A DNA stretch of 64,000 bases. Source: Escherichia coli. GTDB taxonomy: Bacteria > Pseudomonadota > Gammaproteobacteria > Enterobacterales > Enterobacteriaceae. The position numbers are program-made. Shown here piece after piece: positions 20,961 through 23,900 of the stretch. The DNA is taken from the NCBI RefSeq assembly GCF_030013205.1, contig NZ_CP122648.1; one strand, written 5' to 3'. Each line of letters begins with the position of its first letter. The first letter of the stretch is position 1.

Positions 20961-23900
20961 TAGTAGAGTAAGTAACTGGTTAATTTACATTCTGGTCGCG
21001 TGCGCAAATACGCTTTTCCTCACACAGTTGTCAAGTGTTACGTTTAGATAATTGCTATCCGGAAAAGCATCTGCTATTTATAGCGGCCTCATTTTTCCCC
21101 CGAACATGGGGATCGATAGTGCGTGTTAAGGAGAAGCAACATGCAAGAAGGGCAAAACCGTAAAACATCGTCCCTGAGTATTCTCGCCATCGCTGGGGTG
21201 GAACCATATCAGGAGAAGCCGGGCGAAGAGTATATGAATGAAGCCCAGCTGGCGCACTTCCGTCGTATTCTGGAAGCATGGCGTAATCAACTCAGGGATG
21301 AAGTCGATCGCACCGTTACACATATGCAGGATGAAGCAGCCAACTTCCCGGACCCGGTAGACCGTGCAGCCCAGGAAGAAGAGTTCAGCCTCGAACTGCG
21401 TAACCGCGATCGCGAGCGTAAGCTGATCAAAAAGATCGAGAAAACGCTGAAAAAAGTGGAAGACGAAGATTTCGGCTACTGCGAATCCTGCGGTGTTGAA
21501 ATTGGTATTCGCCGTCTGGAAGCGCGCCCGACAGCCGATCTGTGCATCGACTGCAAAACGCTGGCTGAAATTCGCGAAAAACAGATGGCTGGCTAATTAC
21601 AGCCGTTCCATCACGTTTACCACAGGCGGGAAATGCTCCCGCCTTATTTTTTGTTCAAAGAGATGACAGACACACACTATATTGGCCGCTTTGCCCCCTC
21701 TCCTTCCGGCGAGCTTCATTTTGGCTCTCTGATTGCCGCGCTTGGCAGCTATTTACAGGCTCGCGCTAGGCAAGGTCGCTGGCTGGTACGCATTGAAGAT
21801 ATCGACCCGCCTCGTGAAGTTCCCGGTGCCGCAGAGACTATCCTGCGCCAGCTGGAACATTACGGTCTGCACTGGGACGGCGACGTTCTCTGGCAATCGC
21901 AACGTCACCACGCCTATCGCGAAGCACTCGCCTGGTTACATGAGCAAGGATTAAGTTATTACTGCACCTGCACGCGTGCGCGTATTCAAAGCATTGGCGG
22001 TATTTACGACGGTCATTGCCGGGAATTACATCATGGACCAGACAACGCCGCAGTACGTATCCGCCAGCAGCATCCGGTCACCCAGTTTACTGACCTGCTG
22101 CGCGGCATTATTCACGCCGACGAAAAACTGGCACGGGAAGATTTTATTATTCATCGCCGTGATGGTTTGTTTGCCTATAACCTGGCGGTGGTGGTGGATG
22201 ATCACTTCCAGGGCGTGAGCGAAATTGTCCGCGGGGCAGATTTGATCGAACCGACAGTGCGGCAAATCTCGCTGTACCAGCTTTTTGGCTGGAAAGTGCC
22301 AGATTACATCCATTTACCGCTGGCGCTTAATCCACAAGGCGCTAAACTTTCCAAGCAGAATCATGCGCCTGCGTTGCCGAAAGGCGATCCACGCCCGGTG
22401 TTAATCGCGGCACTTCATTTTCTGGGTCAGCAGGTAGAAACACACTGGCAGGATTTCAGCGTCGAGCAAATCCTTCAGTCAGCCGTCAAAAACTGGCGGC
22501 TCACCGCCGTGCCTGAGTCGGCAATTGTAAATTCAACATTCTCAAATGCGTCATGCTGAGCTATGATTAGCCGCTATTTTTTTGTCCTGAATGATGTTTG
22601 ACACTACCGAGGTGTACTATTTTTACCCGAGTCGCTAATTTTTGCCGCAAGGTGCTAAGCCGCGAGGAAAGCGAGGCTGAACAGGCAGTCGCCCGTCCAC
22701 AGGTGACGGTGATCCCGCGTGAGCAGCATGCTATTTCCCGCAAAGATATCAGTGAAAATGCCCTGAAGGTAATGTACAGGCTCAATAAAGCGGGATACGA
22801 AGCCTGGCTGGTTGGCGGCGGCGTGCGCGACCTGTTACTTGGCAAAAAGCCGAAAGATTTTGACGTAACCACTAACGCCACGCCTGAGCAGGTGCGCAAA
22901 CTGTTCCGTAACTGCCGCCTGGTGGGTCGCCGTTTCCGTCTGGCTCATGTGATGTTTGGCCCGGAGATTATCGAAGTTGCGACCTTCCGTGGACACCACG
23001 AAGGTAACATCAGCGACCGCACGACCTCCCAACGCGGGCAAAACGGCATGTTGCTGCGCGACAACATTTTCGGCTCCATCGAAGAAGACGCCCAGCGCCG
23101 CGATTTCACTATCAACAGCCTGTATTACAGCGTGGCAGATTTTACCGTCCGTGATTACGTTGGCGGCATGAAGGATCTGAAAGACGGCGTTATCCGTCTG
23201 ATTGGTAACCCGGAAACGCGCTACCGTGAAGATCCGGTACGGATGCTGCGTGCGGTACGTTTTGCCGCCAAATTGGGTATGCGCATCAGCCCGGAAACCG
23301 CAGAACCGATCCCTCGCCTCGCTACCCTGCTGAACGATATCCCACCGGCACGCCTGTTTGAAGAATCGCTTAAACTGCTACAAGCGGGCTACGGTTACGA
23401 AACCTATAAGCTGCTGTGTGAATATCATCTGTTCCAGCCGCTGTTCCCGACCATTACCCGCTACTTCACGGAAAATGGCGACAGCCCGATGGAGCGGATC
23501 ATTGAACAGGTGCTGAAGAATACCGATACGCGTATCCATAACGATATGCGCGTGAACCCGGCGTTCCTGTTTGCCGCCATGTTCTGGTACCCACTGCTGG
23601 AGACGGCACAGAAGATCGCCCAGGAAAGCGGCCTGACCTATCACGAGGCTTTCGCGCTGGCGATGAACGACGTGCTGGACGAAGCCTGCCGTTCACTGGC
23701 GATCCCGAAACGTCTGACGACGTTAACCCGCGATATCTGGCAGTTGCAGTTGCGTATGTCCCGACGTCAGGGTAAACGCGCCTGGAAACTGCTGGAGCAT
23801 CCTAAGTTCCGTGCGGCTTATGACCTGTTGGCCTTGCGAGCTGAAGTTGAACGTAACGCTGAACTGCAGCGTCTTGTGAAATGGTGGGGGGAGTTCCAGG

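Follow-up and report, generated by a model that had tools for sequence, protein, structure and literature searches.

The segment from 21624 to 21652 of the 64,000-nucleotide stretch of Escherichia coli DNA analysed here (contig NZ_CP122648.1, assembly GCF_030013205.1; the window) is, with little doubt, the Rho-independent terminator of dksA, a partial and leaky one that lies within the dksA-gluQ transcription unit. The ATG in the loop of its hairpin is an Escherichia-specific accident and is unused as the start of gluQ. The terminator and the read-through across it have already been published, for the same element in the near-identical genome of Shigella flexneri (Caballero et al., 2012, BMC Microbiol 12:226, PMC3542578). 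What I add is a survey of the element over 80 species, which shows that the loop ATG has been lost within Escherichia and that the gluQ start is everywhere without a Shine-Dalgarno (SD) sequence, and the link to later Term-seq and N-terminomics data.

The window carries the gene order thpR-sfsA-dksA-gluQ-pcnB of the E. coli chromosome, and a 201-nt query around the terminator found matches in 5424 of 5426 complete E. coli genomes, one record being 100% identical. The two genes share one reading frame, their starts lying 522 nt apart, and the 66-nt spacer that separates them contains no in-frame stop. The features discussed below are collected in Table 1.

Table 1. Features of the dksA-gluQ region, in window coordinates.
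Feature	Position	Strand	Basis and remarks
dksA Shine-Dalgarno, AAGGAG (strong)	21128-21133	+	Sequence
dksA CDS	21141-21596	+	RefSeq annotation of identical E. coli loci; ORF list; stop TAA 21594-21596
Terminator stem, 5' arm, A-GGCGGGA	21624-21631 (GGCGGGA 21625-21631)	+	Sequence; terminator scan; fold
Hairpin loop, AATGC (AAUGC), 5 nt	21632-21636	+	Sequence; holds the in-frame ATG 21633-21635
Terminator stem, 3' arm, TCCCGCC-T	21637-21644 (TCCCGCC 21637-21643)	+	Sequence; scan; fold; pair counts
U-tract, TATTTTTT	21645-21652	+	Sequence; in vivo dominant RNA 3' end at 21648
Predicted weak pairing of the U-tract with AAGAGAUG, over the true AUG in read-through RNA	21645-21665	+	Fold, -2.9 kcal/mol; significance doubtful
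gluQ (gluQRS/yadB) CDS, 298 aa	21663-22559	+	RefSeq start; Edman sequencing; nascent N-terminus; crystal chains; ATG 21663-21665

The initial annotation had noted a GC hairpin with a trailing T-run after dksA, and both are present. The flanking pair A21624/T21644 lengthens the stem to 8 bp, six of them G-C, and the hairpin by itself (21624-21644) folds at -14.5 kcal/mol; the U-tract, TATTTTTT, places seven T within the first nine nucleotides after the stem. This is the anatomy of an intrinsic terminator: a short-looped stem of about 5-14 bp, rich in G-C, and a U-rich tract right after it. The hairpin is more than a product of chance, because it ranks first among the 26 terminator-like sites returned by a consensus scan of 12000-31000 (8 pairs, 6 G-C), because the pattern GGCGGG-N3-9-CCCGCC occurs once in the 64 kb against 0.03 expected, and because the fold energies point the same way, the 84-nt spacer fold having z = -2.7 against shuffles.

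That this element terminates dksA transcription, as had been proposed, is borne out in vivo. Term-seq of E. coli K-12 finds a dominant RNA 3' end at MG1655 160097(-) (Adams et al., 2021, PMC7815308), which the 61-mer printed with it places at window position 21648, inside the T-run. This end has an average read count of 3,097,035, an intrinsic-terminator score of 7.47 and a Rho score of 1.16, which is classed as "No", not significant (PMC7815308). Averaged over 800-nt windows, RNA coverage is 250 before the site and 62 after it in the absence of the Rho inhibitor bicyclomycin (BCM), and 250 and 72 in its presence (PMC7815308). Adams et al. label the end as internal to gluQ, 15 nt from the start, because the 308-aa annotation of gluQ was used (PMC7815308). 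Since Term-seq by itself cannot separate termination from processing, and the mapped end lies only 4 nt beyond the extended stem, which is compatible with some trimming, one might suppose that the 21648 end is left by 3'-to-5' exonucleolytic trimming stalled at the hairpin, and that the hairpin serves mainly to stabilise dksA mRNA. I consider this very improbable: the stem has a canonical U-tract 3' of it, coverage downstream is 4-fold lower and insensitive to Rho inhibition, and deletion or disruption of the hairpin raises expression of a transcriptional reporter placed after it, an effect that trimming would not have.

Termination is incomplete, and the claim that gluQ is made by read-through from the dksA promoters agrees with both the Shigella study (PMC3542578) and the Term-seq data (PMC7815308). 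In S. flexneri, a lacZ reporter stayed at baseline when the dksA promoters were left out, which means that gluQ-rs lacks a promoter, and dksA and gluQ are co-transcribed, as RT-PCR products spanning the spacer show (PMC3542578). Deletion of the spacer made a downstream lacZ fusion 10-fold higher, and mutations in the stem, all of the disrupting type, made it more than 2-fold higher (PMC3542578). Thus the published data show a Rho-independent 3' end in the U-tract and a rise in downstream transcription when the stem is disrupted, as for an intrinsic terminator, together with a promoter-less, co-transcribed distal gene and measurable read-through, as for a partial terminator inside an operon. 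The sole promoter-like match near gluQ, at 21654-21683 (9/12), was rejected as a promoter for the gene: it would start transcription within the gluQ CDS, and the published fusions show none. How much RNA passes the terminator is only roughly known, the estimates being about 25% from RNA coverage of E. coli in exponential LB, where the 800-nt windows mix synthesis and decay, and about 10% from the Shigella reporter. Read-through is also evidenced by the native GluQ-RS N-terminal peptide detected in E. coli K-12. An RNase III site has been reported in gluQ; it lies mid-gene (MG1655 159578), away from the terminator.

The initial annotation went further and placed the start codon of gluQ inside the terminator. 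By sequence, the first ATG of the mechanically delimited gluQ ORF (21633-22559) does lie inside the hairpin. It is the first ATG of that ORF only because the two genes lie in one frame with no stop in the spacer, and the ORF boundary itself is an artefact. The gene starts instead at ATG 21663, 11 nt past the T-run and 30 nt downstream of the loop ATG, according to Edman sequencing, N-terminomics, the crystal constructs and RefSeq. Edman sequencing of Shigella GluQ-RS expressed from its native spacer read TDTQYIGRFAP, the residues that follow the second Met, the protein being over-expressed by T7 from a plasmid in which pelB is translated ahead of it (PMC3542578); the S. flexneri N-terminal sequence differs from that of the window at one of the 11 residues read (Gln for His). 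A nascent N-terminomics study of 2026 reports MTDTQYIGR for E. coli K-12 b0144 (PMC13245402, Table S1 row 32) and classes it as UniProt P27305 shortened by 10 aa at the N-terminus, with its initiation site at 160082-160080, which is window position 21663; the table establishes that the Met11 N-terminus exists and says nothing on absence of the Met1 form. Furthermore, the chains of PDB 1NZJ and 4A91 (the 298-aa form) align to residues 11-308 of the long ORF, and the RefSeq CDS start falls at 21663 in all seven E. coli records inspected.

Comparison of species leads to the same start. In a scan of 80 Enterobacteriaceae loci, one genome per species, an in-frame loop ATG was found only in E. coli, E. 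albertii and Escherichia sp. E1V33. Even within the genus the codon is poorly kept: the loop reads AAATA in E. whittamii (ATA in place of ATG) and AATTA in the divergent isolate AF16 (ATTAC), and Escherichia sp. MOD1-EC7003 has lost one nucleotide, so that its loop ATG is no longer in frame. All genera beyond Escherichia lack the loop ATG, and in nine species a stop interrupts the frame after the hairpin and before the gluQ ATG, within the would-be extension. Among E. coli genomes, 4453 of 5424 are identical over 21597-21670, so about 18% vary within this 74-nt stretch of the spacer region, and all four of the variants inspected carry A21659C, a non-synonymous change of Lys to Asn in the supposed extension. 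Because the loop ATG is lost, stops occur in frame and the variants are non-synonymous, the ten extra codons are without coding constraint on this comparison of sequences, and the long ORF is an artefact.

Could the loop AUG nevertheless be a genuine start, sole or alternative, that yields a 308-aa GluQ-RS gated by melting of the hairpin? It is, as noted, the first in-frame ATG of the ORF 21633-22559, and NC_000913 and UniProt P27305 continue to list it as the start, an annotation that the TRAINSPOTTER table quotes and that Adams et al. adopted (PMC7815308). A weak SD-like AGGCGGG lies just upstream (-6.3 kcal/mol), yet it forms part of the stem and leaves only 2 nt before the AUG; Caballero et al. 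also remark on a possible SD before the loop AUG (PMC3542578). A minor extended isoform of GluQ-RS is compatible with the data. However, two independent determinations place the N-terminus at Met11, the crystallised enzyme is the 298-aa protein, the codon has been lost or frameshifted as described above, and opening the region around it would cost 17.7 kcal/mol. The sequestered AUG is therefore not the functional start, the N-terminus lying at Met11 and the loop codon being unconserved. The reading has already been largely refuted, and I give it next to no chance.

The further claim that the hairpin limits translation of gluQ finds little support. In the 2012 paper this was put forward as a suggestion (Caballero et al., PMC3542578). 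In E. coli, a 31-nt ribosome window takes 17.7 kcal/mol to open around the loop AUG versus 4.9 around the true AUG; over 81 sequences the median at the true start is 6.3 kcal/mol, versus 9.0 at the dksA start, so that across species the gluQ start is the less structured of the two. It is costly to open only where the hairpin comes within 10-12 nt of the AUG, and the true start is not occluded by a conserved structure. A second possible occlusion, the pairing of the U-tract with AAGAGAUG over the true AUG, was rejected: it is weak, its sequence is unconserved in other genera, and the start opens at only 4.9 kcal/mol. An SD at the true gluQ start was sought and found in none of the 81 sequences, the best anti-SD duplex reaching at most -2.2 kcal/mol; its absence at the gluQ-rs start had been remarked on by Caballero et al. 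(PMC3542578). At dksA, the anti-SD duplex is perfect (-9.2 kcal/mol) in all 81. The missing SD explains low translation of gluQ more simply than the hairpin does, and I infer that low output of GluQ-RS reflects partial termination and SD-less initiation rather than occlusion of the start by the hairpin.

The sequence of events is, with little doubt, as follows. Transcription begins at the dksA promoters, and after the dksA stop RNA polymerase makes the 8-bp G-C-rich hairpin and then UAUUUUUU, where most transcripts stop. A minority, roughly one quarter judging from RNA coverage in exponential LB and one tenth judging from the Shigella reporter, proceeds into the promoter-less gluQ. On this read-through RNA, GluQ-RS is translated from the AUG at 21663, where the SD-less start probably keeps output low, and the loop AUG, locked in the 5-nt loop of a hairpin of -14.5 kcal/mol, goes unused.

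Across the family the hairpin is strikingly constant. Essentially all 80 species have a hairpin built from the same arms, at a distance of 10-27 nt before the conserved ATG. Of the 81 sequences used for the conservation counts, 69 share GGCGGGA/TCCCGCC exactly, and the loops vary (AAUGC, UCU, UUU, CUU and others, 3-5 nt). Among the 63 distinct sequences, 91% of cells pair and none of the six core G-C pairs is retained in fewer than 60; compensatory changes are restricted to the inner A-U pair (to G-C in four) and the closing pairs. RNAalifold on 37 whole spacers gave the terminator as the sole consensus structure, and covariation contributed no more than -0.2 to its score. Since compensatory changes are few and the covariation term is so small, the evidence for function within the family lies in sequence conservation, not in covariation.

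This constancy prompts the question of whether something reads the stem. One could imagine a regulated attenuator, in which a trans-acting protein or RNA recognises the invariant stem and adjusts the share of transcripts that reach gluQ to growth phase or stress. It is the sequence of the stem, not just its pairing, that is nearly invariant over about 30 genera, versus 31-56% consensus at the flanking positions, and the identical stem is retained in several genera despite a poor U-tract (e.g. Yokenella L068 and Superficieibacter L075), so that termination alone may not account for it. Moreover, Caballero et al. observed in stationary phase a 20-fold rise of spacer-containing RNA with dksA and gluQ signals nearly constant, and raised a binding protein or riboswitch-like circuit as a possibility (PMC3542578); a purely constitutive terminator does not predict a growth-phase change of this size. 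That RT-PCR result, however, is semi-quantitative and unreplicated elsewhere, and a stem of 7-8 bp tolerates little weakening, which may alone explain its invariance. An Rfam scan of 20900-22700 at E-values up to 1 found no riboswitch or known RNA family, its only hit being a chance snoRNA match inside dksA, and RNAalifold on the 37 spacers yielded no antiterminator or other alternative structure. A small hairpin that spans the dksA stop codon (21585-21606, -10.3 kcal/mol) recurs in many species; it shows no covariation, pairing at the synonymous GCN base being found in 18 of 72 against 15.9 +/- 3.3 permuted, and it was set aside. There is thus neither an Rfam match nor a conserved alternative structure nor covariation at the stop-codon hairpin, as a riboswitch or leader attenuator would lead one to expect. 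Distant lineages, moreover, have unrelated stems or none. On balance a regulated attenuator is unlikely. Within it, the specific proposal that the near-invariant stem GGCGGGA(G)/(C)UCCCGCC is a site for a trans-acting factor that tunes gluQ read-through by growth phase is a slightly longer shot; if true, it would link DksA expression to glutamyl-queuosine modification of tRNA-Asp by regulation and not by fixed leakage.

Two other roles for the spacer were considered. The anticodon loop of tRNA-Asp, the substrate of GluQ-RS, has 7 nt (CU-GUC-AC). By inspection, the terminator loop is unlike it, being variable and of 3-5 nt, and the idea that the hairpin mimics the tRNA-Asp anticodon stem-loop was dropped. 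A literature search for a dksA 3'-UTR, ProQ or sRNA role found no papers.

Beyond the family, seven loci of distant GluQ relatives (48-68% identity) were examined, and four were informative. Two have unrelated canonical terminators in the spacer, AAAAGGAGC-TTAG-GCTCCTTTTTT (L092) and GGCAGAGC-TTCGA-CTCTGCC-TTTTTT (L094), and in two others (L089, L090) the dksA-gluQ spacer is 17-18 nt and hairpin-free. Caballero et al. remarked on the same recurrent but not universal pattern in Pseudomonas (PMC3542578). These few sequences fit a dksA-gluQ attenuator design that may be recurrent, not universal.

Which known systems does this locus resemble? The terminator T1 of rpsU-dnaG-rpoD and the terminator of recA-recX offer parallels: the distal gene is reached by read-through, lacks a promoter, has a poor ribosome-binding site and is made at a low level relative to an abundant proximal product. 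As at dksA-gluQ, an intrinsic terminator lies between co-transcribed genes; the genes differ and the sequences are unrelated. In the phage MS2 replicase operator and in RNA thermometers, an AUG sequestered in a hairpin is the functional start and is controlled by melting or binding. They share with dksA-gluQ an AUG in a stable hairpin, but the analogy fails because the sequestered AUG of dksA-gluQ is not a start codon. T1, which lies before dnaG, and the recA-recX terminator were cited as internal terminators by Caballero et al. (PMC3542578). They also raised the possibility of a link to the preQ1 and queuosine-pathway riboswitches of Rfam, which likewise have a terminator hairpin upstream of a queuosine-related gene (PMC3542578); the dksA-gluQ spacer, of 57-75 nt, differs from these in having no Rfam match (E up to 1) and no conserved aptamer-like or alternative structure. 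The S. flexneri dksA-gluQ-rs terminator itself is the same hairpin, with a published delta-G of -14.7 versus -14.5 kcal/mol here, and likewise has two candidate AUGs, given as 27 nt apart, of which the second is the start, and depends on the dksA promoters; nothing essential differs (PMC3542578).

The result bears first on annotation. The E. coli K-12 reference record and UniProt P27305 still give the 308-aa form that starts at the loop ATG, and as a consequence genome-wide studies call the dksA terminator an "ORF-internal" 3' end of gluQ. The analysis shows that the 298-aa GluQ-RS is the correct form and that the terminator is intergenic. No new mechanism is invoked: in textbook fashion, a leaky terminator and an SD-less start together hold the distal product at a low, fixed ratio to the proximal one.

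The genes dksA and gluQ share a reading frame (window 21594-21665), and the 66-nt spacer between them contains no in-frame stop codon. A mechanically called gluQ ORF therefore extends upstream as far as the stop codon of dksA and takes the ATG in the loop of the terminator hairpin (21633-21635), which the initial annotation had read as the gluQ start, rather than the true start at 21663. This explains the 308-amino-acid gluQ annotation that persists in NC_000913 and UniProt.

Close to the true start, the spacer carries a polymorphism that is common in E. coli: window 21659 changes from A to C (AAAGAG to AACGAG), with the gluQ ATG 4 nt downstream. 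Roughly 970 E. coli genomes (18%) are variant in the spacer relative to the window, and all four genomes sampled from these variants carry the substitution. At the next gene, pcnB, RefSeq places the start at a non-canonical ATT (22619); the ORF finder gave TTG 22598.

Within the gluQ coding sequence, an RNase III-dependent cleavage site was reported at MG1655 159578, or window ~22167 (mBio 2017, PMC5371410), and the same study did not reproduce the cleavage in vitro. This site is unrelated to the terminator hairpin. One further hairpin lies upstream of the dksA coding sequence, and another overlaps its end.

Additional hairpins around dksA
Feature	Window coordinates	kcal/mol	Location
Terminator-like hairpin, CTGCTATTTATAGCGG + CCTCATTTTT	21071-21093		sfsA-dksA spacer
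Small hairpin, ATGGCTG/CAGCCGT	21585-21606	-10.3	dksA stop codon in loop

The upstream hairpin matches the position of a published Term-seq 3' end, MG1655 160652(-), equivalent to window 21093; it may terminate sfsA or act as an attenuator within the leader of dksA. Many other species have a predicted hairpin resembling the one at the dksA stop codon; no covariation was seen at the base that faces the synonymous GCN position (18 of 72, versus a null of 15.9 +/- 3.3).

Among the loci of more distant GluQ relatives, two have unrelated canonical terminators in the dksA-gluQ spacer (L092:694-827 and L094:1067-1261), and in two others (L089:1468-1561 and L090:1469-1561) the spacer is just 17-18 nt and the hairpin is absent. 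Within the Enterobacteriaceae, Yokenella (L068:1432-1506) and Superficieibacter (L075:1430-1506) keep the identical GGCGGGAG/CTCCCGCC stem followed by almost no U-tract (tails GTAACCACAACT and TTAATAAG); in these genera the hairpin may be a poor terminator or have a different function.
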